Part shown: one piece after another, positions 5,461 to 63,000 of the stretch
How the letters are laid out: every line of letters begins with the position of its first letter
How positions within the stretch are numbered: position 1 is the first letter of the stretch
NCBI GenBank assembly: GCA_046563655.1
Contig: CM102283.1
Location: 1,364,001 to 1,428,000 of the forward strand
Length of the DNA: 64,000 nucleotides
Direction of reading: 5' to 3'
Origin: Yuukianura sp. NJ FZ-2021
Taxonomy: Eukaryota
Notes under the pieces: generated by a model
What the model was told of the DNA's origin: nothing
Seen by the model: the letters and a program-made list of their open reading frames with translations, nothing else
Databases searched by the model: none
Position numbers and translations under genes: made by a program

Positions 5461-5489
5461 TATAAAACTGACGGTTCGAAACATCAGTC
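5461..5489 (+). promoter_or_regulatory. TATA box plus initiator of the knottin gene
   Basis: TATAAAA at 5461-5467 and arthropod Inr-like TCAGTC at 5484-5489, about 70 nt upstream of the ATG at 5556. AATAAA at 5913-5918 lies downstream of the stop. Confidence 0.6.
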
Positions 5490-5555
5490 TGACTTCAAAT
5501 TCTGAAGAAAAGGCTACTGTAAAAGGTCAAAGGTCAAGAAAGTTTTAAGGTCACG

Positions 5556-8229: not shown

Positions 8230-9244
8230 GCCAAAGGTCATCTGTCGTCACAGTCAAAAGGTCTAGTTGGCCTCGTAGTCATAGGTCTAGTTTCATTTGA
8301 AATCCTGCAGGACAAACACACAAAAATTAGTCGATTGTAGGCTTACAAATAAAAGCTTTATAGATTCTAAACAGTTTTTTGTCCTTACGTTTGAGTCGCA
8401 GCTAAGCTAAGGTTTCATGGTTTCTCAAATTTTTAAAAAAAGGACGAAATTGGATATGATGTTTCAAAATTTGAACTGATTTTTGTTGCATTGGGAGTGA
8501 ATAAAGTTGCAAAACCAGGATAACTATAGATTTAGAAATACAAAAGATTAATTCTTTGCAAAATAAACACCATAGTTGACGTAAGCGCTTAACGTCAATA
8601 ATAAGTTGGACATCTGATGGATTGGTATCACATACGATGTGTTTGGCGTAGTTAATCGTAAAATTTCAAAATTTTGAATTTTTGTGTTTGGAAGTTTCAA
8701 AATCGGACCCATTTTCAAAATCGGTGCATTTCACCATTTCTAAAACTCCACTTTTTTCCGTTTTGAGCAAAAGTTGATAAAACGATAAAAGCCGTCAAGA
8801 GGAATGATTTTGAACAATTTTCGTAATTTTTATGAGAAATTTTCGATTTGGGCAATTATTTTAAATAACTTTGCAACGTTAATTAACCTTTCCACGCCCT
8901 TGCCACAGGTATCCAACATTGACATTGGTGTTAAACAAAAATTTACTAGAATAGAAACGTAACTTATATTAGCTTTTGTTTCCAGAACCTGATTCTATCA
9001 TGCTCAAAACGCGACACAGTTTCCTGAAATTGGACGACTAAATTTTTCAAAGTGTGTTCTCAAACACTTCAATCTAGATTAAATTTTTTGAGAAATTATC
9101 AGAACTTGGAATTCCGGAAACTATAATTTGAGTTTTAAAAAAATAAGAAGATAATATTAGAGAGGTTATATTTGCAACATCTTTTGCCTATTTGCCTTCA
9201 TTCGAGTTTGTAAAGCTTTGAAACAATTTCGTGTGTGAAACAGA

Positions 9245-10627
9245 ATGAGTTCAGAAAAAGCTACTTGTTTTGCCATCAACGTGCTCATGACCTATGGCTG
9301 TACTTTGCAAATTTTTCCATATCGCTGGAACGCCGCCAAATTTCAACTCACAGAATCATCTCAGCTACAAAACTGGGTGTTCAATTTCCACTCCGCCTGC
9401 TTGTTTTTCTACTACTCATTCGTTACGTTTCGGCTCATCTCAACGATTGGCGACGAAATGCCGATCCTCGTGCGGCTCATTATGGTCGTCTGGGTGGTCG
9501 CTTATGGACTCACGAGCTCCTCCACGATCCAATTCTACAAACGTCGCGAGGAAATCATGTTCTTTGCAAATGCTTTGTTAAAAGCCAAAGTCCAAGGTCA
9601 ACTGATCCTGAATCAGAACGATGTGGAAGATGGTAGGAACTAAAAACAAACCAAAATTTCAAAAATTTTAAAAATTGAGTTTTCATATTGCCAATAGACG
9701 AAAGTGAAATAAAAGAAAAAAAATTTTTCTTCTGCCGTAGGGAAGGCTTCACCGGCTTGGATGGAACCGCTGTGGAGCTCTATGCTAATTTGCATTAGTT
9801 CACTGATGATGTATACTAGCGGTCCTGCGCATGCAATTGTTCTGTTCACCGGACCGTGCAACCCATCATACATCAGTTCAGTGATTCACAATTGCTCGTC
9901 ATATTTTGACAAGCCACTGTCGACGCTGGAAGCAACGCCATACGTTTTCTATGAATATTACATCATTGGATTTGTTGTGGCCCTCTGGAGCTTCAACTGG
10001 ACTTTCATCTTCATGGGCTGGTGCTGGATCATACGCATTATGGAACAGGGTCTTACTCGAAAACTTCTGTATTCGTCTAAGAAATGTCAAAATGTTAAAA
10101 ATTTCAAATTAAAAAAAAATTTCATGAATTTTACATGTTCGTTAGGTAGAACTCGCAGTGGCTCATCTTGGGTAGCAGCGGAGCTGGAGTATCGACATTG
10201 TCAAGTTCTGTCTCTACTTTTGAATGACGGTTTTGCATTTTACATACGTATGTTTCCATCTGTTTTGTTCACAATGGCTGGATTGATGCTGTTTGCGACA
10301 ATTCGCTACGCCTCGGTGCTACCGTTCCACCTCTACATTGTTTTCCCTTCATGTGGGCTACGATGCCTGTACGAAGGGACGACAGCACTGGCTGCAGCAG
10401 GAATGATGCATCAGCAGAGTGTCGCCTACTTGGCGACATTTGAAAAACAAATTCAGCGTAGCAACGGAACATTTGAGCGGAAGTGTCACCGAGCGTTTCA
10501 TAGATCGTGTCGACCGCTGCTCTGCAAGGCAGGATCCATGTACACTTTTGAAAATTCAATTGTGTTGGTCAGTCTGTTCAACTGTACGCAGTTGACATTC
10601 AACATGCTGCTGACCTACAACAAGTAG
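9245..10627 (+). CDS. GR/OR-like 7TM chemoreceptor, tandem copy 5 (397 aa)
   Basis: Exons 9245-9632, 9741-10068, 10150-10627; same exon sizes and phases as the paralogs. Confidence 0.75.
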
Positions 10628-12077
10628 GTCAAAGGTCACGTTGACGTCTGAGCTGACGTTGACGTCTGACGATCTGAGCTCGTAGTCAGAGAAGGTTCCG
10701 TCCACCTTCAGTTGAAATCCTGCAAAAACACAAAAACAAAGAATTAGTCGACTTCAGAAATAAAAGTTTACTTTTGAGCTAAACTGGCCAAAGAGTTTCA
10801 TTATTGTTTCTAAAAATTTTGAAAAACTAGCAAACCAAGAAATGGAAAATTTCGAAACAAGTGTAGTATTAGATCTCTTTCTTTTATTTTTCCACTTAGC
10901 ACTAAATAATATTATATCCTGTTCATCACAACTTTTTTCATGGACAAAATCACAAAGCAAAAAGCAACCAGTCGACTTGACCAAGTTTTCATTGCCAAAT
11001 TTTTTAGCCTGGAAATTCCCTTAACTGCCTTCACTTTAACCAAGTTTACATCAAGAGCTTACGAATTAATTCTTCACTTCAACTATTAAAACACGAGACA
11101 AAAAGTTTCTTTGTTGGTAAAATACCAAAAAAAAGGTACATTGAAAAAAGAATTGAGCTATAAATTCGAAAGAGTATTTAAGTACTTTTGCATAGTTTCA
11201 AAGAAGATTCAAGTTCACCAAAATATCATTTGCAGCATTTTTTTTAAGTTTTACAATTTCCAATGTACAAACTGAAAATTCTTATACAAAAATAGCAAGT
11301 TAGTCGTCTCAAACAATTTTTCAAAAATGTGAACCCATTCTTGAAAAATACAAAAACCGTTCATGGAAAGTGAAAAAAAAAACGTTTTTGGAAATCAAGA
11401 TTCGAGACGCAAAGAGCTACCAATTGTAAACAGACCTTATTGAAAACTATTCAGCATGAAAACATACTAAAAAAGTAAACAAAGCTCGCTCTTAATGTTA
11501 GGCTAACGATTTGCAGTTTAAGCGTTTTCTTGACTTTTCACCATTATTTTAAACTTGGTAATCCTCAACTTTGTTAACTTTGACTAAATCCTACAATTAA
11601 CCTAATTAACTAACATTACTTAACTATAACTTCCATTCACTCTGTTCCTTTGTCACTAAAATTTAAATAGTTACACAAACACTAAAAGTTAAGTGTTTGG
11701 CGTCTATAAAAACAAAAGTTACAAAGGTCTCAGTCACTCCAAATCTTACTAAACATGCAGCGTAAATAAATAAACCTCAACTTCTACACTTTATATCTTG
11801 TATAACAAATTCTTAATAATTAAATTATTAATTCGTATAAAAATTAAATACTAAACAATTTCATATCGTGCGTCGACCAAAACACAAAAAATCAAAAATA
11901 AATTAATTTGGCCACGCACAGTCGGAGTTTAATTTTGTAGTTTTTAGTTTCTGGACTGGCTTGCTTAGGAGCTGCTCTTGTTTGCATTTCGTCCTTGACC
12001 TCTTAACCCGCCTGTCTTGTTGTCGTGACCTTTGACTCGGTGGTTGTCGTGACCTGTTGACCTGTCCATGAGTCTCA

Positions 12078-15000
12078 TCATGCCCCAGTGGCCAGAGCCG
12101 GATACTTGAGAACTGTTTTGAGTTGTGGATTGAACTCTTCGAGTGAGTGAGCGGAGTAGTAGAGGATAAGGGCTTTGGGTGTGGGGAAGTGTGTGGTTTG
12201 TCTGTTGAATCCATAGCCCACAGTTCCCTGGTAGATGATACAGTGACCCACTTGACCTCCACCCAGCATCAGCGATAGAGCCAACTCACCAGAACTGGAT
12301 TTCCTGCAAGATTAAACCAATCAAAATTCAAAAACTGCTCAATAACAAGTCAACTCAGCTGGCAGTGATTAACCCATGCACGATTTGGCAATAAACCTTG
12401 TTCTTAACTGTGCTCAAATGTGACCTCTGGCTCTTGTGCCATTTGACAAAAAGTGATAAACTCTAACGTTTTAAAAATAGAACTTGGCTCACCGGACGAG
12501 GAATGTCCCTTCTGGTTTTCCGTTGAGCAGCATCGCTGCATCTTGGCGTGAAGCGTTGCACTGAAACTGTTTTTATAAAAATAAATATAAAGTACATAAA
12601 ACGTTTCATTTTATTTATGAGGTGCATCTGTCTAAAACTAAACGCATTAATATCGTTTAAGTACTTACCCAGAACTGCTCCTCCCAAAAGTCAATTGTAC
12701 CAGGAGAGCACAGAGACTCACAGTCAGCCATGTTGTAGCCCAACTGCTCACAGCGTCTGTAAAATCCAATATAAATTAATAATAAAACACAAAAACTAAT
12801 ACTTTTTATATAATATATTATAAACATACTTGAAAATTCGAGATCGTTGTTTCCGTAGTTGACTGAGAAGGGGTTTGAGGGTAATGAGTTCCGTCTCCAG
12901 CAGTCGGTAGTACGTGGACTGGAATGTCAGGCTATCAGTCAGTTGTCGCCTACTTGTTTCCATGGAGTTCAACCGCGTCTTCAGGTACAGGTAGTTGTCG
13001 TCCATTCTAAAATTTTAAAAAAATTCAAAAATTTTACATGTTCATCAACTCATACTCAAAACCTTGTCTTTGTTTTTAATTTCCAAATTGAAACTCCTTT
13101 TTTTTAGGTAACGCGGCGTGAAAAAGCAACTTACTCTTTGATTCTCTTGGGATCTGAACCTGTCTCAGTCTGTTGCGTCTGCTTGTTCACCGCCATTTGG
13201 TCTCTGAAGAAGGAAATTGCATAGTCAAAGGCTTCAATTGCCTGTTTCTTCAAGTGAATTTCATCTGCCGTTTGAGACTGGAGGTTCGTCTGGAGCTCAA
13301 AGTAGCGAGCACGCATCAAGTAGTCACGACTCACTTCACTCAACGTTGTCATCAGCTTCTCCTTGTCATCGTCCTCATCTCCCTGTGAAATCCAGTGACA
13401 ACTTGTTAGACTTTTGAACATTTTCATTCAAAAACTGCCAACTCATGACTAGATTCACTCTATTTTAAAAGATTACCTTTTCATATTTGGAAACTGGATA
13501 AAGTAGTTTGACATCCAGAGAGTTGTTGTACTCTGCGAGTGACACTTCCTTGTAGTGATTGATGAGACTGACCACACTGGAGAAAGTGTAAGGTTCGATG
13601 AGACCGTACATGCCGTCACGATGAGAAATCCGAAGGAGTTTGGAGTTTTGACCATGACGGACGGTAAGTGTGTACTCCCCGTTCTTTGTACTGGCGTCTC
13701 TCACTAAATAGGAACCATCCGGACAATCCCACAACTTCTCCACAACGTCTTCCCTAAAAATGAAATCAAAATTTTAAAACCAAATTCAATTTATTTATGA
13801 ATTCAATATTTTTTTTTGAAAACTCACTTGGAAATGTCTCCCCAGTACCACTCAGCCTGTTGGAGCTCAATTTCTGGATTGTGATTGAGACGGAAGTCAG
13901 TCGAGGAAACTTTCTTGCCATGAATAACATATTCTCCTACTGCGGGATTTCGTGAGATCATAGGATTAGTGTAGTTGAGCTTAATAGTTGGACCTCTTGA
14001 CAGTTCCTGTCCACGGTTTCCACCGTGAAGCTGAATCAACAGGCAGACGATCCTCAGATGCAGTTGTCTATTGTCCAGAATTTGGCTGAAATTTCCAAAC
14101 AAAACATTTTAAACTCAAAATTTTCTGAAACTCCTTTTCAAAACCGCATTTTTCTAAACTTTCTGCATGACTCACATAGTGTGCTCCCATTGTGGACGGA
14201 GAAGTACCATTCCGTAGAATTGGCTCAGAACTTTCTCTGCATCAACTTCACGGACAGGAGAGGACAGACTGGCACTCTTGACTTTGTCAACTAGGCGACA
14301 GATACGGGCTAAGTGCGATCCAAAGTATTTGAGACATCTGAAAACAAAAATCCACAAATTACATCTTAATTACTTCCACTTTTTAAAATTTTGAAACACT
14401 TTTTTTCAAAAATTGTCTCTTACGTAGCATGTTGTGGATTGAGGTCATCGAGAATCAGTTTGTCCATGAGCAGAAGTGCGTCGGCGTCAATCTGACACTT
14501 TGCAATGTTCATAAAGTCTTCGTAAAAAGTCGTTGGAATAAGCGGTTCCGGAAGTTCTCTGAGGAAGCGTCTAATGCCACTCACGATCTCCCGAATTTCA
14601 AATTCCGTCTCCATCGTTCTGTCCAGGAACTCGGCTCCATTCTGTCGAATGACTCTGTCCACTTCCTCCAACTTATCCCCAAGACGTTTCTTAGCCAGGG
14701 AGGTCAAGGGGTCAAATATTTGTGGTAGATTTGGAACAATAATGTTTCCTTCAGCCTCAATCCTCCGTTCCAGTTCTGCACAAAGTGCAACAAGCACTCT
14801 TGGTCCAGGCACCATTGACGGATCAAACGCCACCGACAAGCTCTGACCGAGAACTGAAAAGAAAAAAAAAGAAATTCTGAATTTTTCTGAAATTTCAATT
14901 CTGAAAATTTCCAGTTTCTAATTCTGCGAAAATAGAACTCGTGTGAATGATTGTAGATAAACTCAATTTTTGTCCAGAAAAGCTCTACTCAACTCATCAA

Positions 15001-18000
15001 TCAACTCGTTCAACCTGTTAAATAATTCAAATTGGAAACTCCGAAACTAAAAACCGGTTACCGGTTGACCTTGGAACTTGAGGAAAGTTGGTCAAAGGAA
15101 TTAATTGAGTCCCACAAAATAATTGAGTGAGCTGTATAGCTTATAGCATGTCCTATTCTCGTCCCACGACATTTCGTAGTATCAGCACAGCATTATACGT
15201 TTGTTTTTCAGAACACGAAAGAGATTGAACTGTTTAAGTCCACACGAGCTTCCAATATCGATTGAAATAATTTCCAGTTTGGAAGCAAGTTCCCATTATC
15301 CTCTGCCTTCATGCCGCAACATGTTGCGCTCCCGTTTCAAACTTTGGCGTTCCGCCGAATTCCCACGCCCCATCAATTATAATCTCCCTTGACGCCTCCA
15401 TACACTTCAAAACGCTGTTTTCCAGACTTTGCAACCAGCGCTGCTGTAGAAGCGACATTTATTATGCACCCAACCCACTTAAATCCCAATACTAAAATCA
15501 ATGTTCCTCTTCCCACGGTTAACATTTAAAAACGCAATATCCCTAACACTTGCAAACATAAGCTTAACATTTAAAAACATAACCTTATCATTTCAAAACA
15601 TAACAACAGTCGTTTCAGTTTTTCGCTTATCTCCAAAATTAAACTATAAACTGACCCACTGACCCTGGCATTCTATTCACACCAAAACGAAAACTAGAGC
15701 AATGCAATTTAGATTACAAATTGAACATGTTGCAACTTTTGCAAAATTACATTTTTCAAATTCGCTTGCCATTAAATTACTTGCAAATTCAAAACACTTG
15801 GGGTTTGTCACGCTCAACATTTCTAAAAAAATCGTAACTCCAGCACAAATTTTAAGCCATGATTAGCTGCAAATCAAAGGCGCAAATGATTTTTGTTGTA
15901 AAGCGCGATGTTTTTAAGCAAACTCAGAAAAAAAACAACATATTTTTGCAAACATTTGCCAAATGTTTCAAATATAAAAAAGTTACGTGTGAAAAGTAAA
16001 ATTTAATTTTCAACATTTCCTAATACTAATCCGTTTGTTCTGCGCCGCCCACATGCAGATTTTTTTTTTGTTTGAATAACGAACAGAAGCACATATGGTT
16101 CAAATGGCAAGAATTTTCGTCGCATAAATCACGTCATCCAATGAAATTAAATTTCAAAATCGATTTTCTCAAAAGGCTAAGTCCTGCTACACCGCAAAAG
16201 AAAATCCAAAGTGAATTTATGAGGTCATCGTCATCCTTGAGAAGTAATGTAAGAAAAGTGCTTTTCAAATTTCAATTTCGGAACAGAAAATGAATGATTG
16301 GAAATCGCACAGCGATTACATGGAAGGTTGTTGCAAGGACGGAAATTGAACTGAAACTTATGTGTAGCATTTGATAGTTGCAGAACCAGATAAGAATCAA
16401 TGTCATTACTAATTCAACATTCGCTCTACTTGTCCAAAGTGCAAAAAATTTTCAAAAAAAAAAATGGAACAGCGAACCAAACGTAAGTTTCAAGTGCTCA
16501 TTGAGAGGACTTACGTGGAGGATATATGATTAACTTCGAAAATCAAAAAAATGCAAAGTTTCAATGGACTTGCCAAATTCAAAGTACTTTTTATAGAAAG
16601 CACGTTTGTGTAAAACTTTCATTAAAAAACACTTACTTCCTACACTTTTTAGAACAAAAAGAATAGAATTTATGAGTTAAATGAATTAATTCGATGATTG
16701 ACGTACCTTTGTTTCGCATGGAGTCCAGTCGTTGTGCTTTGTCCTTGTCTGCACCTACAGTTTCAGTGAGGTCACACTGCGGCAGTCCCAGAACAGCACA
16801 ACCTCGATGAACAATCAATCCACATTCTGCAACAAATTCACAAATTACTTATAATTTTACTAAAAAGTAGTTTCAAAAAATTATACATTTAACATCAACT
16901 TTTAGTAATTAGGTGACCACTTCACTTTTAGCAAAAGGAAACAAATAAGACAGGAAATTTTTCTAAAAACGTCGCTTGATCGTCATCCGACAATCGTCCA
17001 AAAACCGAAATTTTACCACAAGTGACCAAACCTCAAATTTTTATTGTGCGGTTACGGGTAGTATGACGTTGAATTGCGTATTAACATTTTAGCACCTTGA
17101 CAAAAACGAAATTAATCTGCCGTCATTAAATTCATTTTGTTTTTAAGATTTAGCGCTGATTTTAGAGGAAAAGTTTAAAAAAACTTATTCCTTCGAAAAC
17201 GACAGCGCTAACCATATTACTCGTCACTTAATCCTGTGATTGTGACCGTATGAATGTATCCGGTTCAATACATCTCAAGGCCTGCACTTATCACTCCAAT
17301 TCAGACTTGATAAGTTGTACGATTAGAACGAACGTTTCCACTTCTCCTTTTTAAATCACGTACTCCAAGTGCAAAAAATTTGCGAATCGACTTAAACTTT
17401 GCACTCGTTTCCAAGTCAAAGCCGCCTTGAACTTAAATTCAAGCTGGCAGGAAGAAGCTCAAGCTACCGCGAAATTCGAAACTTTGAACTCCGCAAAGTT
17501 TTGAAACTCGTAAAGCGCAGGGCAGTTTTCCAAGTTTTAGAAAATTGAGGCTCCGAAAATTAACATTTTGGATAAGTTTTAAATGAAAAGTGACTTACTC
17601 TGACACATTAGTCCCTGCTGAAAGATGCCGTTTAGTTGGAGATGACACTGATCACAGGACGTGAGGACGTCGAACGTTCTGACCACCAAGCGATGGTCGA
17701 GGTGTGACGCTTTCTGGTGCAGCTCCAGGCAGCGAATGGAGCTGGAGCTGGAAGAAGTGACTGATTGATGCCGAGAATGTTCCAGATGACCTTTGACCCA
17801 CGTCACTCCTCCTCCTCCTTCCCTCTGCTTCTCTTCATCTCGCTGTCGAAGTTGGGCTACAGCAGCCAACACAGATTCCATCGACTGGAAGTCATCTTCC
17901 AGCGATCCTGATCCACCCCCGATCCCCATACTCTGCAACAAAATTAAATCAAAGTTGGACAAGATGTCAAGGAACCAATAACAATCAAGTCAAGATTCAA

Positions 18001-41943: not shown

Positions 41944-42043
41944 NNNNNNNNNNNNNNNNNNNNNNNNNNNNNNNNNNNNNNNNNNNNNNNNNNNNNNNNN
42001 NNNNNNNNNNNNNNNNNNNNNNNNNNNNNNNNNNNNNNNNNNN
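41944..42043. other. Assembly gap (100 N) with duplicated flanks
   Basis: About 46 bp (TTAAAAAATGATGAGCGTCGT..GCTGCAAGGAGAAAT) occurs on both sides of the gap with 2 substitutions. Confidence 0.95.
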
Positions 42044-45000: not shown

Positions 45001-48000
45001 TGTAGTTCATTTTTTCCCGCGCTTCAGCCAAATCCAGAGTTTAAAGAAGTGAAAATTTCACACTTTTACTCTTTCGTCACGAATTGGCGTCTGGCGTGTT
45101 TCCCAACCGTTTCTCCTTCTGTCAGCATGTTGCGAAAGGAAGTCAACGGAAATCAAATTCAAGTCTTGCAAAAGGAATTGATTGCAGCGCATTCAGAGCG
45201 AAACATAACCTAACCTAATCTGAAACTCAAAAGGCTAACAAAATCAGAAAAAATTGTGAAAAAAATAGGTCGTTGCTCAACAGTTCAGGAAGACAGTTTT
45301 CAGGAGACAGTAGACTATTTGGCATGTCGAGCACACGTCAATTGTAATTTAAATTACGTAATTACGTCCACCCAAGTTGGTATTAACCGAAGACGAGATG
45401 ACGGCATCATGAATTAGAAATGAACCAATTGAGTCTGATAGAATTACTTTAAGAATCATATGGTAATTCTAAATGGATCTTTTCGAGTTTTGGCAATAAG
45501 TGTGTTTTATTAAACTGAAATCCCGACTAAGAACAAATCGGTAGTACCCTTAGTTTTTAAACCAGGTCAACTCCGTAGTTCTAAAAGAATATTCTAGAAG
45601 GATTGAAATTGAATCATCCTTAGAAGATTCTGTGTCCTCCAAATCTTTCTGGAAGGAATCTTATCTTAATTGCGTTAACATAAATATTGTCACAAAAACA
45701 AAAGAAACGCTCCGAGTCACGTAGACTCTTTGAGCAAGGGCAGAAAAAATGTAAAGAGAATAAAGGTCAAAGATTGACCTCCTTCATTCCCTCCCTCAAT
45801 CTTATGACCTATGACCTAGTATTGGAAGTATTGCTAAGGGGCTGGATTTCCAAGGCATCCGAGACTTGTTCAGCCGTAATTTTGAATGTTGGCTTCATCT
45901 TCTTCAGCTGCATTACCCGAAATACCAAAAATCCAGAAGCGATGATCAGTCCGATCATAATTAATCCAATCAAAATTCCCATCCAGGCATTTTCTTTCCA
46001 GTACAAGCCGTGGGAAGAGATTTCGCGGTTATTGGTATCCTCTTTTGGGCGTTGTTTTTCCAATTCAGAAAGGCCACTCTCTTCCATAAGCTGAGTTATG
46101 TTGAGTGTGGGTTCCAAATGCCAATTTGCGTGAGTCGTAAAAATGGGATCCAGTTTTTCCTTTTCGGTTAGGTCCAACGTAGATGCCAAATACCGGAAGT
46201 CATTGATTTTGAATTCAGTCATCCTGGATAGCAGAAAAACTTCATCTGGACAGTCTCGCTTCTTTCCTGCAATTTCAATCTGATTGCCAGAACAATAAAT
46301 AAAATTGTTTCCTCCCATAGTTTTGACTTGAATAAAATCAATGGCATCATTTTTACGGTATGGAAGACATCGATCTACTGCGAAATATTTGGACGTTTGA
46401 GGCAGGTCATCAGACGCCAAACATTTGTGTTCCGGGGCAAGTATGAGGTCATCCTTGTCTGTATAACGAACGTTGATGTCATAGACGCAATCCTCTTTCA
46501 ATGAAATAATTGCATTTTCTGGTCCAGTGTAATGGATGGTGCAGGTGAGATTGTTGATCACCTTCCGGAGAAAGAACGGTTCCGCTTTCACCAAAACCAA
46601 ATCATGATCTATGACTGGAACGGTGAATTCCATGTACAAATTTTCTTTTTTTAAATCCATATGACATTGTTTCGGATATCCAAGGTCAATTGGACATTTC
46701 TTCTCACACGGAAGAGAATAATTCAGAAAATCGAAAAATGGCGAATGCATGGAATTAAAATCCCATTTTCGATGTGCTTCCTTCACGATGTGATTTCCAA
46801 TGACCAATCTTGATGAGATGTAGGAGACAATAAAATTTGTGTCAATGGATTTTGTTTTCAATTTGATAAGATCATTTTCAATTTTCTGAACATCCTCAGC
46901 AAGTCCAGTTGAAAATTTCATTAAGGCCTCGATCGCCTTATCATGAAACTCAGCAAGTTTTTGTTGGCGTTTGATTTCAAGGTCTTGTTGAGCCAAAATT
47001 TCTGAAACAGTTTGAATTTGACCTTGAGCTTGAACAGCAGTAACGACACCCGCCACGCCAAGTCCAAAGCTGGCTAAGATGGTGGCTGTAATTGCTCCCA
47101 AAATGAAAACAAAAATTCCTCTTTTTGATACCTGATGAAGGTCAGTCAGCAATTTTGGTGGACAAAATTTTTCCATCTCCGAAATAAAAAGTTTTTCGTA
47201 AATTTCTGTGCATCTTATTTTTGCCATTTGAAGTAAGTCCGGGTGAATCATCTCAGTCGTCAGCAAGTCACAAGGACGTGTGAACTGAAATAGAAGACGA
47301 ACCTCATTGACCCCTTGGATGACTGGGACATCCATTTTCGTCCAAAGAACGAACTGAGGTTTTTGCATTCCAATTGGATCGGTTTGAGGAATTCCAACGG
47401 CAACAAGCATCAGAAAAAGTAAAACTTTTGCAAAATTGCTTGAATTTCCAGAAGCATTTTTCGGTGTTTGCGACCGATTGGTTAGTCCACTCATTCTCTT
47501 CATGTCCTCAAATTTTGATTTTGAAAGAGGTTTTGTGAGAAAATCAGCTTTCTGATTGTCCGTAGAGACGTAGCTGATTTTAATTTTTCTGTTTTCAACC
47601 AATTCTCGAGTGTAATGATAACGCACATCAATGTGCTTGGTGCGGCTGTGGAACTCGGGATTATGTGCCAATTTAATGGCACTCTGATTGTCCAAATTCA
47701 ATTCAATTGGATCTTCTTGTGTAATTCCAATTTCTGTTGCCAATCCATTCAACCAGACGGCTTCTCTCGCAGCGCTGGACAGGGAAATGTACTCAGCTTC
47801 GCTGGAGGAGCAAGCGACAATGGGTTGTTTTTGGCTCATCCATGAGAGTGGAGAATTGTTAGCAAAAAATATGAATCCGGAAGTAGACTTTCGATCCGAA
47901 TGATCTCCGGCGTAGTCGGAATCGCAAAATCCAGAAATTGTTAAATTCCTTCCTGATTCATACGTAATGCTCGTGTCTTTCGTTCCACTGAGGTAGCGAA

Positions 48001-51000
48001 GAACATTTTTTGCTGCAATCCAATGTTTTTCGTTGAATCCAGACAAAAATTGTGATAATTTGCTCACAGCAAATGAAATGTCTGGGCGCGTACATTTCGC
48101 CAAAAATAACAACGAGCCAATTAATTGACGAAATGGAATCCCCTCTGCTTCTCCTTGGACTGACGGTAGTTCACATCCCGGTGACATTGGAACTGTCTTT
48201 GGTTTGCATTCCGTCATATTAAATTTCTCAAGGACGTCTGATAAGTAGCCGCTCTGATGAACGGTGATTGAACCCTCTTGACTTCTGCAAAGTTCCAAGC
48301 CAACAAATCTCTTCGGATCATTCTCAACTGTGATTTCAAATTGAGATTTCAGAAATTCCAGAAGTTCCAGAGTTTCTTTTTCACTGCTGCTGGCAATTAG
48401 TCCATCATCGACATAAATTGCCAAGAGTATGATTTCATTTCCGGACTGGCGAAAGTACAAGGAGGGATCATACTTGCTTTGAATCATGCTGACTTTCTCC
48501 AGAGCCTCTTTCACCTTCTCGCTCCAGCAGCGTGGAGCTTGTTTAAGTCCGTAAAGACTTTTATTCAGTTTGCAGACTTCGTCGGATCCATTTTCAAAAC
48601 CTTCTGGTTGTCTCATGAAGATGATCTCTTCCAAATCTCCATTTAGAAATGCAGTTTTGACATCAAATTGTGTCAATTTCAAATTTTGAGAACTCGCAAG
48701 CGCCAGAAGCAATCGAATGGTTTCGTATCGGCACACAGATGAAAAGGTCTCATTGTAGTCAATCCCATATTTCTGCCGGTAACCCTTAATTACCAACCTG
48801 GCCTTGAACTTGTCGATTTCTCCGTTAGGTTTTTTCTTTACTTTGTAAACCCAGCGATTTTCCAAAATCCTCATTTTCGGAATTTTTGGTACCAGTGTCC
48901 AAGTGCTATTTTTAGCATGACTTTCCATTTCATCAGTCATGGCCTTCATCCATTCGTCCTTCTCAGGGGAAGCCAAGGCTTCACTGTATGAATGTGGGTC
49001 CATGATGTTCATAGCAGCCTTTGCCTGGTAATATTCTGGCTTTGAAAGCGAGGAACGATCTCTCAAGGTCATGTGATGCAACTTCTCCACAACAGAATTT
49101 GGAAGATTGGCTACGTATTGTCCATCAACCTTCGAAATTGTCAATTTGACTCCTTGCTTTTCGACATCCGTTTTTGAATTCTGAATTTCAACTTCATCTT
49201 CGTCAGACACTTCAGTTATTATGGGCTCGGTGTCCTTGACCTCTTCCTTCGTGATGTCATTCATCGGCAATGGAATTAAAATTCCGTTGCTCTTAGGTTT
49301 CTTTTCAACGAAACTGACATTACGACCAAAGACAATCTGACGTGACTCAGCATCGTACAGTCTGTACTTTTTGACTGATAGTGAGTCATAGCCAACCAAG
49401 GTTAGTTTTTTCGACTTTGAGTCCCAAACTTTTCTCTGTTGTTTAGGAACATGGGAGAAAGCTTTACTCCCAAAAATCCGAACATGACCGAGGAACGGCT
49501 TTCTTCCAAAAATCCTTTCAAACGGTGTTTTCTCTGGACTCTGTTTGTTAATTAGTCGGTTTCTGATATAAACAGCATTAGCAATGGCTTCCCCCCAAAG
49601 ATATTCTGGAAGCTTGCTCTGCTGAAGCAGTGTCCTTGCAGTGTCCTTCAAAATTCGGACATGTCTCTCTGCCCTGCCATTTGATTCAGGACAGTAGGGA
49701 ACAGTCTTCTCATGTGCAATACCTTCCTTAGAAAAGAAATCTTCCAAGGTGGAATTCACATACTCTGTCCCGTTGTCACTGCGCATGACCTTCAACTTTT
49801 GTCCTGTTTGCCTTTCCATGAACTTAATGTGTTCAATGACCACGTTTGGAATTTGGTTTTTCGTGGATACAAAACTGACATTGACAAAGCCAGTACAGTC
49901 ATCCACAAAAACAATGAAGTAATTAGCACCTCCGATTGAGGTCACTGGCATTTTACCAGCAGTATCAACGTGCATCATTTCGCCCGGTTTTGTGTTTCTA
50001 CGGGCAACCGGCGGAAAAGGCTGACGGGCTTGTTTTCCCATTTCACATTTTGAGCAGTGAAAATCAGTCGAAATTTGATCAATTGGAATTCCAGAAATAG
50101 CTCCACTTGCAATCGAATTCTTGATGTAAATAGGATTCACATGAGCCAATCGTTTGTGCCAAATTTTTCCAATTGAAGATTTTGAGATGAGGGCATTGAC
50201 CTGTTGAACTGGTCGAAACCTCATGACGAACATGTTATTCTCAAGGGTGCTCACAGGACCGAGAACACCGTCTGAAGTCCAAAATTTTGTACCGTGTTTG
50301 TTTCTAGTGACCTTGAACCCTTTCTGAACCATAACAGATTCGGAGAAGAGATTTGTTGCTCCTGGTATGTATAAAACATTCTCCAAGGTAACTAGATCCC
50401 AATTGTTTCCAATCAAAGCTTCCAATTGTACTGTTCCATGACCAACTGCTTGAGCAGTACTAGAATCAGTCAAGTAAACTGACCTCGGCATCTCAAAAGC
50501 CATGTAGTCAATGAACCATTGCTTGACTCCGGTGATGTGCTGATTGGCACCCGAGTCGGCGTACCATACAGCCTTGGAATCTTTTTGAAGGTCAGTTTGT
50601 AATTCATCGTCCGAAAAATCTTCATATTTTTCATCCATAACCATAAAGGCATGAAGGGAGTCTTTTGAACCAGAAGCTCCCTTATCAGAATCTCGTTTTT
50701 CAGAATTTTCGGAAAAATTTCTGTTGGAGGGTGGACAACGACAATCAACCTTCCAATGACCAATTTTCCCGCAATTTCTGCATCTTGACTTCGCTTTCTT
50801 TTGATCCAAGTCACTGTAATTTTTTCGTTGACCTTTTCCTTTTTCCTTCGAAAAATCTTTCTTCTGATTTTTGGGATCATTTGTGGAGAAAGCAGTGCTT
50901 TTACCACTCTTCCCTGAAGATTCATCTGCGACCTTTTGATCCAAATCTTCTTTTTTGAACCTTGCAAGAAGCATAACCATGGTTTGTGAGTCAGCAGGAA

Positions 51001-54000
51001 CGCTATCCCATGATTTCTTCAAAATTCGATACTTAGGCTCAGGAAGTGCTGAGACCAATCTGGCAACAACAGTGGACTCATCCAGATTTGTTCCAATTTC
51101 TGTCAATGACATCCAAATTTGTTCCATTTCTCCAAAAGCCTCAACAAGCTTCTGATTAGGAGAAATCGAATAATTGAAGAATGAAGCCAACGTCTGATTT
51201 TTGTTGACAACACTAGCATCAGAATTCAAATCTCTGAGCTTAGTGTAAATTTCGCTTGAAGTGGAACATCCATAAATATGAGCAGTTTGACTGGCGGACA
51301 ATGTTGGAACAATAAGGGCTTGAGCCTGAATATCCTGCTCATCCCACTTTGTCTGAGCATCTCCGACAGCTTCCGGTCTTGGCTTAGTACCATTTACAAT
51401 ATCCCAAAGCTTCATAGCCTTTAGGATTAAGCCAATCTGAAGTTTCCATCGAATATAGTTGGAACCATCCAATTTCACGACATTCTTCATGTCGAAAATT
51501 GATTTTGAATCCATTTTCCAAGGAATCTTGAAAAGACTCAGAACTTACACAAAATTCCACACTATATGTTATAAGACAGTTGAACTTTTAACCATCAACA
51601 GCCCTCTTTAGTGTGCTTACTCTAGGAAGCAGAGCGTATGAGGTCAAGAGAAAGGACTTTCACCGTAAGGGTCACCTTCTTTCTCTCACCAATGTTCGAT
51701 GCCCGAACCAGAGACTGGGCACAGAGGCGCACAAATGTTAAGTTCCAACTACTTACAACAGTGATTTCAAAATGTAAATCTGAGTTTTTCGATTTTTGGG
51801 ACTTTCACCCAAAAATCACTGGATTCAAATATCGAACTTTCTCTCGCTTGATTCGACTGGGACTGAAACCCAGAATTGAGAACTAACGGGACTAAAACCC
51901 AAATTCTGCTTTCTTTGGGACTGAACCCAAGTGCAAATGTTTTGGGACTGAAACCCAAAATAAAATTGTTCTCAAAAAATCAAAGGTTTGTTTCGTACCT
52001 TCTGATCCAAAGTGAAAGTCCAAATTCACCTTCACTTCCAAAGTTCAAGGAGAAAAGTTCGTGAATTTTTTGTCACTTCAGTTTTTGAAGCACGATTTGT
52101 TCCAATACCTGGTGATTATAAACTCAGGAACTGTCTCATCATTCGTAACTTTCACCAGTTTCACTACCCTGATAGGGTTGACAGTCACTTTGCGTCCAGA
52201 AGAATCACTGGGACAAGTTACGATCAAAGTTTCAAAGTTAAGATTTAAAAGTCCTTTGGTCTCTTTGGACATGGAATCGAGATTCACTATTGAACCAAAA
52301 CTGAATTTTGACGAACCTCCCTCTGCTACCAATTGATAGAATTACTTTAAGAATCATATGGTAATTCTAAATGGATCTTTTCGAGTTTTGGCAATAAGTG
52401 TGTTTTATTAAACTGAAATCCCGACTAAGAACAAATCGGTAGTACCCTTAGTTTTTAAACCAGGTCAACTCCGTAGTTCTAAAAGAATATTCTAGAAGGA
52501 TTGAAATTGAATCATCCTTAGAAGATTCTGTGTCCTCCAAATCTTTCTGGAAGGAATCTTATCTTAATTGCGTTAACATAAATATTGTCACAAAAACAAA
52601 AGAAACGCTCCGAGTCACGTAGACTCTTTGAGCAAGGGCAGAAAAAATGTAAAGAGAATAAAGGTCAAAGATTGACCTCCTTCAGAGTCAATTGCAGTGA
52701 AAATTTAATTAATCTTTTATCAAAAGCTCTCCAGTGATGAGATGTCCAAATCCCACTTTTAATTCACACGCGTTTGTTTGTTCAGTTAACTAGAGTAGTG
52801 TTTTTGACGTTGTTAGTCGTTATTAGAGAATTAATAATTTATCACAGTTTTTATTAAAAAGTTATTAGTTAGAAGTAAATCGCAAGTAAATTCCGAGCAG
52901 TGAAGTTATGTTCCTGTGAGTTTGTGTGAAACCCTGGAACATTTATGGAAGTTTCCAGGAGTTAAAAATGTACATCGGAAGTTGGAAGAACTAGAGGTCA
53001 GGTTAGGCAGTGTTGTGTTGCAAAGTAGGTTGATGATGATAGTAAGATGAGTGGTCCCTTGGAGGTGCGAAAGTGTTGATGGGTTGTCACTTTCACTAAA
53101 GTGACGAACATCTTTTGACTCCCTAATGGCCCCAAATGTCACAACGCAAAACAGCTTCATCTACAGCCCAACAGATTTTAGCCTAAGAACCAGCCCTTTC
53201 ATTTTGAACTTTCAAAAAAGTTTCAAAATTTTAACTCCAAATTATTTCCAAATGAAGCCTCATTTCAGTTGGTTCTTTAAACTCATTTTTGTTGAGTATC
53301 TTTTCACCCCAAACTCTTATTTCCTCTCCCTCAGGACCAACAGCAGTTCAAGTCTACCTACTTTCACTTCATACAACATTCAAAAATTTCAAAAAACGAG
53401 CGGGAAAGATGAATTTTAAAGTTTCCGTGCTCCAATTTCCTCTGTGTCTCATTACGCCTCGTACACAACCCATAAATCCTTCTTCCCGCCACGGTGCACT
53501 CCCTGAAGATTCTTTTTCTTTGTGTTGGAGTGGTTAGGTTTAGAGTGGAGTGGGCCATAACTCCCCTAATGGGGGACCTAGAACCCCCCGGGGGACCCCC
53601 GACCCCCTTAACAACTCTTTTCATAACCCCCCCCCCCCTAGCAACCTCTTTTCATAACCCCCCCCCCCTCTGATCCACCCCCCTTGGCCCCACTCTGTGT
53701 AAATATGCCAAGGGAAGCTCAATTCATAATTCCCGGTTCAAGTGGTTAGAAAGCCGGAGGACTCCGCACACACTTTCCTAAATGAAACCAATTTGAAGAG
53801 TAGCGGGAAGTTTTGAACTAGGACGAAGATCAATACTGGAAACTGCACTAGGAGAAAGTTCAAAACCAACAAAAACTGAAAATTCAAACAAGGAATTGGC
53901 GCCAAAACAGACTTTTCAAAAAACGGGAGAAGGGTGATGTGGTGACAGCGGGTTTTCTTAAACGCGGTTTCTCGGTTTTCCTCGAAAAGTCCAAACATCT

Positions 54001-57000: not shown

Positions 57001-60000
57001 CGACTATGTTTCTTGAGCAAAGCTTTGCCTGGTGCTAAAACTTAGACTAACCGAGGTCAAAGGTCAAACAAATATGACTTACACTAAGGGTAATTTGAAG
57101 TAACACAGAACTAAATCTGGCAAACTGAAAATATGTTTTGTGTTAATAAGATTAAAGGTTACATACATATATGAACTTCATAGAAGAAAGAAGACGCATA
57201 AGTTGCGTAATCATGAAATTAGTCGGACGAAACAAAAACTAAATTGAGTCTATTCGCAAACCCTAGTTTTGTTGTCGTACCGCAGTATTACACAATAATC
57301 TTTATACAATCCAGCTTACCACACACAAAAACCTAACTTACCTAGCAACCTAACGCAGTAGAAGATATGGGTAATCACCTGTATTGAACCTAATAACCTA
57401 ACCTATTAGTGTCTCTCAACAAAATTGAAATCTCCCTCCAGTGCCTCCTTGGAGCCTAATCATGGTTTATCGATATGTTTGGAATTGGTGTGCTAAAGAC
57501 AGAGGAACCTCTTGTTATACTAAGCTGAGAGGTTCCTCTATGCGTTGCACAAAGGGTTCCTTGACCCAATTATAGTTTGGCCATGTATCTTTATGCCTTT
57601 GGCACTCGGTGAAAGTGGGAGATCTGGTGAAAGGAGAGGCAGTTAGCAGCATCGGATTTTGGGGAGTGGAGGGAACTAGGAATACGGTTATATTTATTTC
57701 AAAGTTTCCCGCCCTGTCTTCCAAATGGAGACTAATATACCTCCGCTCCTTCCAGAAAACGTCTATTATTCCAAATGGTCTCCTCTACACACTAGAGTAG
57801 GATCCACTACAATGTATAATATATCGTATTATTCCAAATTCCAAAAGCCCTTTTTTTCTTTCCCGCCAAGACTTTTTTGAAAATGAGGTCGCTGAGCAGA
57901 GAGCGGGAAAAGGAGGTAGAATTTGAATAAAAGAAAACGGAACATGACAAGTGATTGGATTCTGGCAAGAACACGTAGCTCTCAGTGGCAGCGGCTTGTC
58001 AACATACAGTCAGCCGTCCTCCATGTTTAGCCTGACAATGTGTCAGGAGGGGGGTACTTGAGGGTCCATTGGATTTTGGCCCAAAACAAACAGTCGACGT
58101 CAAATCCCTTGGTACATGTCACCACTGACTGACTGGAAGGGCCCCCTTTCAGTTTTTCACATGATTCAAATTTCTTTTTTGAAGTTTGCGTAACCGAGCA
58201 TTATGGTGTCATCACATGTCAGACTAAAAGTTATTACATTTGACTGCCCGCTTGCGTCATCACTACTCTGGACTGACGGACAGAAACAACTAAGTTATTC
58301 ATTATCCATGATGAACAATTTTCGAAATTTAGGAAATTGAAAAACAGTGCATGTTGCAAATGAGGTTTCGATTTTCCATCGAACCGATTAAAAATCGTTA
58401 GGCCGTGTGACTTCCTCTCCTGTGGATCAATTTTCATGACTTTTTTTCTTAAAAAATTTTCTAATTCTGTTTTTGTTTTTTGGAAAATATACGGAAGCTA
58501 ACTTGTGACTGTTATTGTTTCCGCGCTTCAATTGGAATTCGATTTGAAAAAAAAAGTTGTACCCGATCCGCCATACTTCAACCGAGGAAACGGAGTGTCA
58601 CTTTGACTTACCGACGACGTTGAGATGGTATCTGAGTATTTTGGGGGGATGAGACGAGATCTGACACTGATACTCCCCGCTGCTATTCAAACTGACTTTG
58701 CCTAGTTTGAGTTGGAAGTTGTTTGGCGGCACAAAATGGAGACTAATCCGTTTGGCATCTGACGAGTAAACGACTTGGTCCACCGTCAACAACTGCAGGT
58801 TACCACTCTCGTCTCCCTTCATCCACGAAACCTAAAACAAAAAAAAATAATTACATTTAAAAAAAAACAACATTAAATGTTGTTGAAATACTAAACTTGA
58901 AACAAATTTTGCTTCAAGTTTAGTATTTCCAGAAAAAATAAGAAAAAACGAATAATCCTGTGATTCAACTTTTATGCTGATGTTAATTTTGTGCAAAAGC
59001 ATAAAGCACTCAATCATCTTTGATATTTTTGTAACCGCGATGCGCATGATACTAGTGCATGTGTATCATATACTAGGCTGTCAGCAGGAACAAAAAGTAA
59101 AGTCTTCCCAAGTCTTACCCCATAAAAGTGTTCCAGTATATGAAAGAAAATTACAGTAAAATTTTCAGAATTTTTTTTCAACTCTAAAGGGTGCCGCAGA
59201 CATGTTACAGATTAGCAATGGACGCCCTATTAGAATGTACGCATCTAAGCCCGTTTATTCTTATTTATTGTTATTCGCTGTAGAGTAGCTTTTTTCGTTT
59301 CAGTGAAAGAAACTGAAATAAATGAAATAAACTGAAAATTGAAAGAAACTACAGCTGTTTTGTTTCAGTCCATAAATTTAGGTTGGGAAAGCAAAACTTC
59401 GTTTCACCCTAAAGAAATGAAGAAAATTGAAATTAACTGAAACTCAAATACCCACAACATACCCGCAACATACCCACAACATACCCACAACATACCCGCA
59501 ACATACCCACAACATACCAACAACATACCAACAACATACCAACAACATACCAACAACATACCCACAACATACCAACAACATACCAACAACATACCAACAA
59601 CATGCCAACAACATACCCGCAACATACCCACAACATACCCACAACATACCAACAACATACCCGCAACATACCAACAATATACCAACAACATACCAACAAC
59701 ATACCCGCAACATACCAACAACATACCCGCAACATACCAACAACATACCCGCAACATACCCGCAACATACCCGCAACATACCCACAACATACCAACAACA
59801 TACCCGCAACATACCCGCAACATACCCACAACATACCAACAACATACCCGCAACATACCAACAATATACCAACAACATACCAACAACATACCAACAACAT
59901 ACCAACAACATACCAACAACATACCCGCAACATACCAACAATATACCAACAACATACCAACAACATACCCGCAACATACCAACAACATACCAACAACATA

Positions 60001-63000
60001 CCCGCAACATACTGTGATGAAACGAAGTCAGCGACCTCATAGTTCACGTCAACTTGCATATTAGTTTTGTAGTTAGAAATCTTTTGTCTTTTTGTAAAAT
60101 GTAAACTAGAAACCGGATTGTACTAGTTTGGTCATTGACCTAGGGTGCAAAATTAGACTTATGTTTGCCAACATGTTAATTTGGAGTAGGATTCCCTCTT
60201 GTTTTACTCCTCGTAGTTTCCGGCTGGGGCCCTATAAAAGGACCCAGCCCTGCCTGTACAAATAATCATTCTCTACTGTGACTCTGCTCCGCTTGGACAG
60301 AGTTCACCTTTACTACTCGCCAGTTGACCTCTGCGAGGTCAAACTGGACTTTTCAATTTCATTTAAACTTTGAATAAAAAAGTTCATTTCTACCTTCCAC
60401 CACGGAAGGCAAAACAAACTTTGTAGTGTTGTTTCTTTTTCTTTTAGGCCTAAAAGGCCTTATTTCACTACAATACCAACAACATACCAACAACATACCC
60501 GCAACATACCCGCAACATACCAACAATATACCAACAACATACCCGCAACATACCAACAATATACCAACAACATACCCGCAACATACCCGCAACATACCAA
60601 CAACATACCAACAACATACCCGCAACATACCCACAACATACCCGCAACATACCCGCAACATACCCACAACATACCAACAACATACCCACAACATACCAAC
60701 AACATATTCACAACATACCAACAACAAACCCACAACATACCAACAACATACCCGCAACATACCAACAACATACCCGCAACATACCCACAACATATCCGTA
60801 AGTAGGTTATCCCTATATAAATCGTTGATCCCGTTGCGGCACTCCCTAGCGTTGGAATAAAAATCTGAAAATTTTACCAATTTTTGTTGCGGCACTCCCT
60901 AGCGTTGGAATAAAAATCTGAAAATTTTACCAATTTTTCTTCTCATATAATGTAACGATTATGTGGGGTAAGGCTTAAAGTAGAAGTAGTTTGAAAAACC
61001 CAATGTATTCTGTTGACAGTCTAATCATATACTCATGAACAGGGTGGGCCTTCAATCTCCGTACCCTCTTTCTTTTCCTCTCACTCTGCTCATAAGAAAC
61101 TCATGTGAGAGTTTCTCTTTCTTTCACTTGGGTACGCACTTCTGGGGCGCACCCTGTATGAAATTGATTTAGTGATGATATTTTTTCATGAGCATGAGAA
61201 ATTGATGAAACTCGTATGTGAGCATGAAAAACTGATGAAACTCGTGTGTGAGCATGAAAAACTGATGAAACTCGTGGGGGAGTATGAGAAACTGATGAAA
61301 CTCGGGTGTGAGTATGAGAAACTGATGAGTATGAAAATCACAAAGTGTACGATTAATACTGGTTCATCACAACAATATCAATCCACGAGTATGAAACAGT
61401 ACATTTGATATAAAAATCATAATTGCTTATGAGATTTGTGCATGACTATGGCAGACAACCATGCATGATTCGTGTTGATGATGCTCACGCAGGCGAAAAG
61501 TTTATATGCATTACATTACAAGTCTGCAAAAACAGAGGTGCGGGTGTGGGGAAAGCATGTGGCGAAATTCCCGGGGATTGATTCTCAACATTCAATTAGC
61601 TCCCGTGGGAGGTAGGGAGACGGGGGAAGGTGGGGCGGTGGCTTCATTTAATTTTGGTGGAATGCCCTCATGTCTCTGTCTGAAGAGCCTTTCAAGTCCT
61701 TCACTCTTCATTTCCCAATTGAAACTAATCACAAATGCTCTTTCACTTTTCACTTATAAAAGGGAAAGCTTAAATCAACCGAGGTTTCACCCATTTCAAC
61801 AACTCAAGGAAATTTCAACAAACGGAATTTCCAATCTGTAGGTCAAAAGGTCAACTTTTTTTTTGTAAAAACTTTTCGCAAAGGTGAACTTTTTTGAAAA
61901 GTCATAAGCTTTTTCGGAGGCAACTTTTTTTTTTTTTGTAAAAACTTAACTTTTTAACAAACCTGTTAAAGCCACACTAGTTTATTTAGTTTCAATTTTC
62001 AACTCTTTGAAAAAAAAATGTAATGTGCTGTCATTCAACATCCAGTTGGAGAAAAACTTTTTGAACTTTATGTTTATTACTTGACAGAATTCAATTTCGG
62101 TTGTTGTTTTTTCTGTTAAAAAAAGTTTAAAATAAAAAAGTTTTTTCCACAAAGTTTTCACCAAACAGCTTCTTTCAATTCAAAATAAAAACATAAAAGT
62201 TGGAGTAGGAAATTGGACAAAACAATTTCCGTTAGCATTTTATGTTTTTAAATTTTGAAATTTTGTTGGCGTGTTTTTTAGATGTATTTGAGCAGTAGTA
62301 AACACTGAATTAAAATTTCAAAGGGAATGCGGATAGCCTCTAGCAGTTTCGGCTTGTCGCAAAGACTTCACATTTTATTTCTGTTTGTCCCCCTTGTAAA
62401 GCCATTTTTTTTCGGAATCCTAGTTTCAATTTTTTTCAAAATGAGGATTTTGAACACCCAGAAATCCGGCGTTTTTCAAGTTTTATTCTCCGTTGTTCCA
62501 TCAAGTCATAAATCATTTTGCTGTTGTTACCCCAGCAGCAGAGAAAGTAAGGCGAATTGCTGTACTTGGAAATTGAACCCCCGCGGCGTTTTCCTTCTAC
62601 TACTCTCGAGACTTGAATTGAGTTCTCATCGCTGTACTTGGTGTGCTCCCCATGTGCATAAATGTACAATGTGTTTCAAAAGTCTGGCATAGCCTAACTT
62701 AACCTAACCTAAATTTGAGCTCCTCAGTTCAGCAGGGGATTAATCTGGAGTGTTTATGGTTGAAGAACTAAACCGTTAGCGTTTTGTCTTCATTTTTGGA
62801 ACACCTTGTACATTTCCAAATAAAGACGCAGGAAGCACAGTAAACGAAGTGCTGATGATGAGGTAAACGCTTTCTCCGTTCCCGCCTTTTCTCCTGGGTC
62901 CCCACTTTGTGATTCTGCTCTCGTTCTAATGAAAGTTCTTGATATCTGAAGGCTTTACGTTGTTAGGTTAGGCATTGGGTTAGCCCTAGTGACCTCCCGA

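Follow-up and report, generated by a model that had tools for sequence, protein, structure and literature searches.

A Ty1/copia retroelement with an envelope-like glycoprotein in the same reading frame as Gag and Pol

Envelope-bearing retroelements and the present locus

Long terminal repeat (LTR) elements that carry an envelope gene (env) are a model for retrotransposons turning infectious. In the literature consulted, the cases described in animals belong to Ty3/gypsy (the errantiviruses and the vertebrate retroviruses) and to BEL/Pao; for Ty1/copia, only plant env-like open reading frames (ORFs) of unproven function are cited there. The subject of this report is a Ty1/copia element in a stretch of 64,000 nucleotides (the window, whose first base is position 1 in all coordinates below) from Yuukianura sp. 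NJ FZ-2021 (assembly GCA_046563655.1, contig CM102283.1, positions 1,364,001 to 1,428,000 of the forward strand). The element spans 45436-52684 on the minus strand (7249 bp) and is an intact, very recently inserted LTR retroelement of a distinct copia lineage, the polyprotein of which ends in a viral class I fusion glycoprotein (Env). The step towards infectivity would be shown for all three LTR superfamilies by a copia lineage that has a true class I fusogen, is deeply diversified and includes at least one copy whose LTRs are identical.

Within Ty1/copia, SIRE1 is described as having pol and an env-like sequence in one frame, with the env-like part reached by stop-codon suppression (PMC2829016, citing Havecker and Voytas, 2003). 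SIRE1 and the Sireviruses resemble the window element in having an envelope-like frame downstream of a copia-type Pol, which in SIRE1 is entered by translation through from Pol, but the suppressible stop of SIRE1 has no counterpart in the window element, which has no stop at this point. Furthermore, as far as the accounts in PMC5408684 and PMC2829016 go, the plant env-like proteins are without proven fusogen features, whereas in the window Env a signal and a basic cleavage site are combined with a fusion peptide, a heptad repeat and an anchor. Other copia elements, as PMC5580714 presents them for Drosophila and plants, have one long Gag-Pol frame from which an excess of Gag is obtained by splicing. 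These differ from the window element in having no Env, their Pol ending a few residues past the motif where Env begins in the window.

Polyproteins in which Gag, Pol and Env share a single frame are already known from nematode BEL/Pao elements, being reported for Atlas virus and eight other elements of one hookworm genome (PMC9094657). As in the window element, Gag-Pol-Env is free of stops and introns and the LTRs are identical, and that account likewise leaves the release of Env unsettled. However, Atlas combines a BEL/Pao Pol with a phlebovirus-like class II Gn-Gc, whereas the window element combines a copia Pol with class I features and so falls outside the BEL/Pao Atlas group. The original prediction for this locus had called the Pol-Env fusion unusual; so it is, but the hookworm elements (PMC9094657) and SIRE1 (PMC2829016) are reported precedents.

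The Env itself has its closest parallel in Ty3/gypsy, where the 'ancient errantiviruses' are described as carrying an F-type Env with a signal, furin site, fusion peptide, anchor and likeness to paramyxovirus F (PMC13524379). The window Env has the same set of features and has relatives that are fused to gypsy Pol, but its own Pol is of the copia type, with the integrase ahead of the reverse transcriptase (RT) and an RT of the RVT_2 family. The survey in PMC13524379 kept Ty3/gypsy only, and its main text is without the words fused, in-frame, splic or frameshift; the survey of animal copia diversity in PMC11889832 mentions neither envelope nor env. The copia version with a class I fusogen in animals appears to be undescribed, in that the full-text literature searched, a body that mostly excludes subscription journals and did not extend to the supplementary tables of PMC13524379, yielded no account of a fusogen-like Env in any copia element of animals, nor of a copia Gag-Pol-Env in a single frame. 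Judged by its sequence, the element would work like an errantivirus or retrovirus on a copia backbone, and it looks like a retrovirus-like lineage that has arisen from copia.

The Pol-Env fusion and its conservation

Gag, Pol and Env were predicted to form one ORF of 1901 aa, fused without a stop or a frameshift, and they do (51514..45809, minus strand). The critical stretch between RNase H and Env (47390-47515, minus strand) contains neither. It opens with the end of Pol, KFEDMKRMSGL (aa 1334-1344; 47483-47515), in which the two in-frame methionines noted earlier within EDMKRMSG are Met1338 and Met1341. There follows the linker TNRSQTPKNASGNSSNFAK (aa 1345-1363; 47426..47482), which is rich in Ser, Asn and Lys and cannot be aligned across relatives, and then the signal-like hydrophobic run VLLFLMLVAVGI (aa 1364-1375; 47390..47425), which is preceded by a Lys and followed by PQTDPIG and the conserved start of mature Env, PQFVLW. 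At 19 and 12 aa, respectively, these agree with the Ser/Asn-rich linker of about 20 aa and the internal hydrophobic signal of the original prediction, and the two methionines lie 23-26 codons ahead of the hydrophobic run. Close copia relatives that lack env (about 1250-1353 aa, on contigs of 4.1-4.8 kb) end 0-12 aa past the same Pol motif, K-F-x-x-L-R-x-x-L-G, and Env therefore starts exactly at the usual stop position of Pol. No 2A-like skipping motif was seen on inspection of the linker by eye. The linker does contain three N-x-S sequons (aa 1346, 1353 and 1357; 47441-47479) on what would be the cytosolic side of the signal; they are probably a by-product of its Ser/Asn-rich composition, since the linkers of relatives do not share them.

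An exhaustive search with the Env tail gave 504 relatives at E<=1e-3 and 118 at E<=1e-30; a word-indexed protein search with the Env region returned nothing among long proteins. In the best 150 Env matches, Env is attached to a copia RNase H tail in 32 and to a Ty3/gypsy Pol in 21, and by Pfam 24 long matches comprise 12 full copia Gag-Pol-Env proteins (1741-2005 aa) and 12 of gypsy type. The long copia ORFs run through metagenome contigs of 5.4-8.7 kb without interruption, and because metagenome genes are called as plain ORFs, those fused frames that were looked up, on contigs of 6-8.7 kb, are truly uninterrupted. Relatives that carry a species name are proteins of the springtails Folsomia candida and Orchesella dallaii; they are annotated 'Copia protein' or similar, and a family that bears only this label in public springtail data is easily overlooked. 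One gypsy-type Env relative comes from a mite. Continuity of Pol and Env in copia, in the related gypsy elements and, according to the literature, in BEL/Pao suggests that Env is expressed in some way other than retroviral splicing.

A sample of DNA that is not biased towards fusion was obtained by fetching 21 loci by an Env motif alone, and 13 of these contain the end of RNase H as well as the start of Env. The two lie in the same frame at 12 of the 13, and when the window is set beside these metagenome loci, 12 of the 14 junctions are open and in frame. The exceptions are L002, which has a single TAG inside the hydrophobic core of the signal, and L009, in which the junction is frameshifted in a copy that carries several further frameshifts. 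Programmed read-through of the L002 TAG (followed by TTA) was considered and rejected, its position within the signal core making a nonsense mutation more likely. Long open frames are seen at L005 (1888 codons), L006 (1902 codons, with LTRs identical over at least 300 bases) and L007 (1837 codons). Across 12 junctions, the 589 codons from the Pol motif to the start of mature Env contain a single in-frame stop, compared with 38 and 18 stops in the other two frames. Because the linkers are unalignable and vary in length from about 0 to 87 aa, they must have undergone many insertions and deletions, each of which preserved the frame, and this argues for selection for translational continuity as opposed to inertia. 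These comparisons establish the in-frame Pol-Env fusion as a conserved, selected trait of the family. Since continuity has been kept across the family, ribosomes must, on the same evidence, enter env from upstream coding sequence.

The persistence of the fusion is also seen in its phylogenetic distribution. In a tree of RT and RNase H (117 rows, built with FastTree only, and with an 'envfused' label that was assigned by tail length alone and is unreliable for plant gene models outside the env clade), all 38 env-carrying copia rows form one clade with support of 98 and with no env-less row inside it; env-less elements are its neighbours. Members of this clade share only about 45-55% identity over RT-RNaseH, so that the fusion has persisted through deep divergence. 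The window element groups with arthropod and metagenome rows and the plant rows lie outside the env clade, in a tree that contains no labelled Sirevirus reference. To explain an Env tree of 115 rows, two or more switches between copia and gypsy are required, for which the tree, being unrooted, gives no direction.

Several members of the Env family depart from the arrangement in the window. In gypsy polyproteins of 2200-2700 aa (P0077, P0093, P0097, P0103, P0119, P0142 and others) the homologous Env is fused after the integrase, by way of a long acidic or Ser-rich linker and a conserved basic motif, RRSxRxxK(P), just ahead of the hydrophobic signal; P0119 is a whole gypsy Gag-Pol-Env frame on a contig of 9.5 kb. 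In L013 (1-6575) and L016 the order is Env end, LTR, Gag, Pol, Env start, and the first and last 123 bases of L013 are identical; such contigs could stem from circular or tandem copies, or from an assembly that wrapped around on a multi-copy element. L003 (2063-3619) encodes a stand-alone Env of the same family (518 aa, 35% identical) with its own ATG directly before the signal. Upstream of it lie about 2 kb of AT-rich non-coding DNA without an LTR repeat or a Pol remnant. A retrotransposed copy of a spliced env message was rejected as its origin, as there is no LTR repeat and no upstream likeness to Pol or leader, and L003 may be an env captured by a host.

The Env tail of about 560 aa has no Pfam match. 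Env proper (45812..47389, minus strand), as aligned with its relatives, has the conserved N-terminus PQFVLW, 12 cysteines, three ectodomain sequons and a cytoplasmic tail. There are only three hydrophobic segments in the whole polyprotein, corresponding to the signal, the fusion peptide and the C-terminal anchor, the last of which (aa 1843-1867; 45914..45988) is the strongest. The basic cleavage site VSKR (aa 1462-1465; 47120..47131) is R-x-K-R in relatives, and its Arg is invariant in 30 of 30 aligned Env sequences, as are several cysteines and a few other positions; all 12 invariant positions of this alignment are kept in the window Env. Directly after VSKR comes a hydrophobic fusion peptide of 31 residues beginning GIFVFILG (47027..47119), which aligns to henipavirus F0 and leads into a heptad-repeat region. 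An N-terminal signal, a single C-terminal anchor, a basic site before the fusion peptide and a heptad repeat are the features of an F-type class I fusogen. When a profile of the 30 Env sequences was compared with the Protein Data Bank (PDB), the top five matches were paramyxovirus F0 chains (best 5ejb_B, henipavirus F, E 2.7e-4), although only the fusion peptide and HRA are matched and coiled coils follow close behind. The Pfam family Fusion_gly (PF00523) matches 7 of 80 family members at E<0.01, the best with 27.7 bits, below the cut-off of 29.8. Neither Fusion_gly nor Baculo_F matches the Env of the window itself, and none of the 80 members scanned matches Baculo_F, the family to which the Drosophila gypsy Env belongs. 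The Env tail is best described as a class I fusogen with F-like features that stay below family thresholds, that is, with a weak likeness to paramyxovirus F, and is not presented here as a proven F protein.

Possible routes to an envelope protein

In the polyproteins of flaviviruses and alphaviruses, a cytosolic protein precedes a short hydrophobic signal, which initiates translocation of the glycoprotein behind it and is cut by signal peptidase. The original prediction had offered two routes to Env, processing of such a polyprotein or translation of a spliced env RNA. We give an even chance to the former, with Env made as the C-terminal part of the polyprotein and its internal signal cut by signal peptidase. 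This is a proposal that draws on flaviviruses and alphaviruses for likeness of mechanism only and implies no homology. Gag-Pol-Env would be translated as a whole until the short hydrophobic run past the linker emerged and, acting as an internal signal, took the ribosome to the endoplasmic reticulum (ER). The Env ectodomain would then be translocated, signal peptidase would cut after the signal, probably after AVG (aa 1372-1374), and a furin-like protease would cut at VSKR to expose the fusion peptide. Gag-Pol would be left on the cytosolic face, tethered for a time by the signal peptide, and might thereby bring capsid assembly to Env-bearing membranes, in likeness to the capsid-prM of flaviviruses. 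The excess of Gag would come from splicing around the protease, the usual practice of copia elements.

In its features the hydrophobic run resembles a signal that can be cleaved off more than it does an anchor. In 51 fused sequences compared, the median length of the uncharged run is 16 aa (range 9-26; 12 in the window copy), the eight residues ahead of it are net positive in 47, and small residues at -3/-1 follow it in all 51, by a loose criterion. The selected continuity of Pol and Env favours the polyprotein because this route predicts it, whereas it is not needed for a spliced env messenger RNA (mRNA) that has a start of its own nearby. In addition, the stretch from the Pol motif to mature Env is free of Met in P0063 (an intact frame of 1896 aa) and in P0055, and most of 12 gypsy-linked relatives examined are without a Met near the signal.

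A number of points weigh against a polyprotein. Cleavage of the signal is judged by simple rules only, and an open linker is equally required by a spliced mRNA that starts at a Met in the Pol tail. Such a Met stands at +8 after TKPL in 27 of 56 env-carrying tails but in 1 of 39 env-less ones (Fisher 4.8e-7), the window copy has two Met in its Pol tail, and four of the six best donor-like sites of the element lie in the leader by a crude matrix. Finally, production of Gag, Pol and Env in equimolar amounts would be an odd stoichiometry.

Several of these points bear directly on whether Env is instead translated, in the manner of retroviruses and Drosophila gypsy, from a subgenomic mRNA produced by splicing, with a leader donor joined to an acceptor in the RNase H region and the start at Met1338 or Met1341. 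This possibility we consider doubtful, and likewise its corollary, that the fusion is in frame merely as a by-product of the start codon lying within pol, with the linker serving the signal peptide of Env as a long n-region. Both methionines are suitably placed, 23-26 codons before the hydrophobic run, and the Met at +8 is absent from all 14 close env-less tails. However, the enrichment of this Met may be inherited, as the env-carrying elements form one clade, and Met anywhere in +1 to +14 is not enriched (42/56 versus 23/39, p 0.12). A start Met is missing altogether from P0063 and P0055 and from most gypsy-linked relatives. Both GT sites named in the original prediction are present in the leader, AAG/GTACGA at 51998 and AGA/GTAAGC at 51620 (slashes mark the putative splice positions), and both belong to the four leader sites among the six best donor-like sites of the element; moreover, copia elements are reported to splice (PMC5580714). 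The difficulty lies with the acceptor. A weak one, CAATCAG/AAAGCT (element 5134), has Met1338 as the first ATG beyond it, but no acceptor of the window copy that lies within 150 nt of the Pol tail ranks higher than 23rd of 436, and the stronger ones upstream (element 4884 and 4911) lead to an out-of-frame ATG. Among the relatives, L001, L008 and L013 have strong local acceptors (ranks 4, 1 and 6), whereas L005, L006, L007 and L012, four of the seven examined, have no strong one, and with crude matrices built on general consensus frequencies, no consistent strong acceptor before env was found across eight elements. Of the two routes originally proposed, the polyprotein has selected continuity and Met-less relatives in its favour; splicing has the leader donors and the Met at +8, and against it the want of a strong acceptor just before env in the window copy.

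A different intron, spanning Pol as in Drosophila copia, would join Gag and protease in frame to the end of RNase H, such that an abundant short mRNA encoded Gag and Env, full-length RNA encoded Gag-Pol-Env, and Env was freed by the internal signal in either case. Such an arrangement would account both for the continuity of the frame and for an excess of structural proteins, and it has parallels in that the Drosophila copia intron covers the whole of POL and plant copia elements splice around the protease, as PMC5580714 describes them. The best donor-like site of the window element, GAG/GTCAGT (element 2202, aa 344, in the protease), matches in phase the second-best acceptor (element 4884, aa 1238, in RNase H), but top donor and acceptor match in phase in three of six elements when two of six are expected by chance, and the acceptor score follows from conserved Cys/Ser codons. 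The springtail gene models P0023 (Folsomia candida) and P0060 (Orchesella dallaii) lack RT and RNase H, which is what this intron would produce, yet they may be deletion copies or gene-finder artefacts, given that the models P0071 and P0064 show unrelated deletions. In P0023 and P0060, Gag-PR-IN (where PR is protease and IN integrase), or the end of IN with the first ~30 RT residues, is joined directly to the Env linker and signal. On this evidence a Pol-spanning intron is very unlikely. More improbable still is that the fusion has no function, Env being a dead passenger or the open frame an artefact of assembly or chance. The window does hold just one copy, and nothing else speaks for this reading. 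Against it stand the identity of the LTRs over 351 of 351 bases, the intact target duplication, the retention of all catalytic motifs and of all 12 invariant Env positions, and the occurrence of the same architecture on independent contigs from several sources. The invariant Env positions, together with the same-frame junctions and the stop counts across them, bring it close to refutation.

A broader interpretation of the family is speculative and on present evidence unlikely. According to this, the env-carrying copia elements would be old but still active 'copia retroviruses' of springtails and other soil arthropods, their F-like fusogen either captured or shared with a gypsy lineage, and expressed only as the tail of Gag-(Pol)-Env. 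An internal signal left uncleaved would tie Gag-Pol to the ER and so replace the matrix domain that copia Gag lacks, and a Pol-spanning intron might add a Gag-Env messenger. If true, the 'copia retrovirus' would be the third independent way in which an LTR retrotransposon has become an enveloped virus, and one employing a polyprotein logic otherwise found in plus-strand RNA viruses.

Organisation of the element and its surroundings

The two LTRs of the element (5' LTR 52334..52684, 3' LTR 45436..45786, minus strand) are each 351 bp long, are identical at 351 of 351 bases and have TG...CA ends. The LTR pair is flanked by a 5-bp target-site duplication, GAGTC, at 52685..52689 (the upstream side in the sense of the element) and at 45431..45435 (the downstream side). 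Two nucleotides beyond the 5' LTR is a primer-binding-site-like sequence, TGGTAGCAGAGG (52320..52331), which presumably resembles the 3' end of initiator tRNA-Met; no tRNA gene with which to compare it lies within the 64-kb window. At the other end, the polypurine tract GAGGGAGGGAA (45787..45797) adjoins the 3' LTR. There is no second copy of the element within the window.

A leader of 819 nt with several donor-like GT sites extends from the LTR to the gag ATG (51515..52333). It contains five copies of a TGGGTTTCAGTCCCA-like motif (51797..51957), each forming a small GGG...CCC hairpin, at spacings of 27-61 nt. The whole window has six matches to this motif, a number reached by 0 of 100 shuffles, and a 196-nt stretch of leader with the copies folds far better than its shuffles (z -4.39, with 0 of 200 as good). 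The hairpin cluster could be a packaging or dimerisation signal; no part of the element has an Rfam match at E<=1.

The single Gag-PR-IN-RT-RNaseH-Env frame occupies 45809..51514 (minus strand; 1901 aa and a stop). It begins with a copia-type Gag (50615..51514; Retrotran_gag_2 at aa 13-189, 6.5e-20 and 71.7 bits against a cut-off of 27) that includes a CCHC knuckle (zf-CCHC, aa 244-259), and continues with an aspartic protease (50315..50566; Pol_BBD 6.6e-19, aa 317-400; DSG at aa 320-322). The integrase that follows (49295..50233, aa 428-740) has a zinc region, a core and an SH3-like part matched by gag_pre-integrs, rve (aa 508-607) and SH3_retrovirus, and is succeeded by an RT of RVT_2 type (48182..48910, aa 869-1111; 4.4e-68, 230 bits against a cut-off of 31.6) with YVDD at aa 1034-1037. 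RNase H and the C-terminal tail of Pol (47483..48067), delimited by comparison with env-less relatives, end in ADFLTKPLSKSKFEDMKRMSGL. The acidic motifs of integrase and RNase H, the protease DSG and the RT YVDD are all kept in the translation. The order PR, IN, RT, RNase H, in which integrase precedes RT, is that of Ty1/copia (Pseudoviridae), and the RVT_2 and copia Gag matches above their cut-offs, the TG..CA LTRs, the 5-bp duplication and the polypurine tract agree with this assignment.

Elsewhere in the window, an assembly gap of 100 N (41944-42043) lies 3.4 kb from the element. Exon-like frames at 14420-17989 (minus strand) encode a RhoGAP domain (6e-9) together with a C1 domain that matches weakly, which suggests a host chimaerin-like gene. 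Arrays of an 11-nt repeat, ATACCAACAAC, at 59448-60012 and 60473-60794 (51 and 29 copies) give rise to spurious long frames on both strands. In the first part of the window (1-10630, plus strand), four or more paralogous genes in tandem encode a multi-pass membrane protein, exemplified by a 304-aa frame at 9713-10627, which has no Pfam match and a single database relative at 58% identity.

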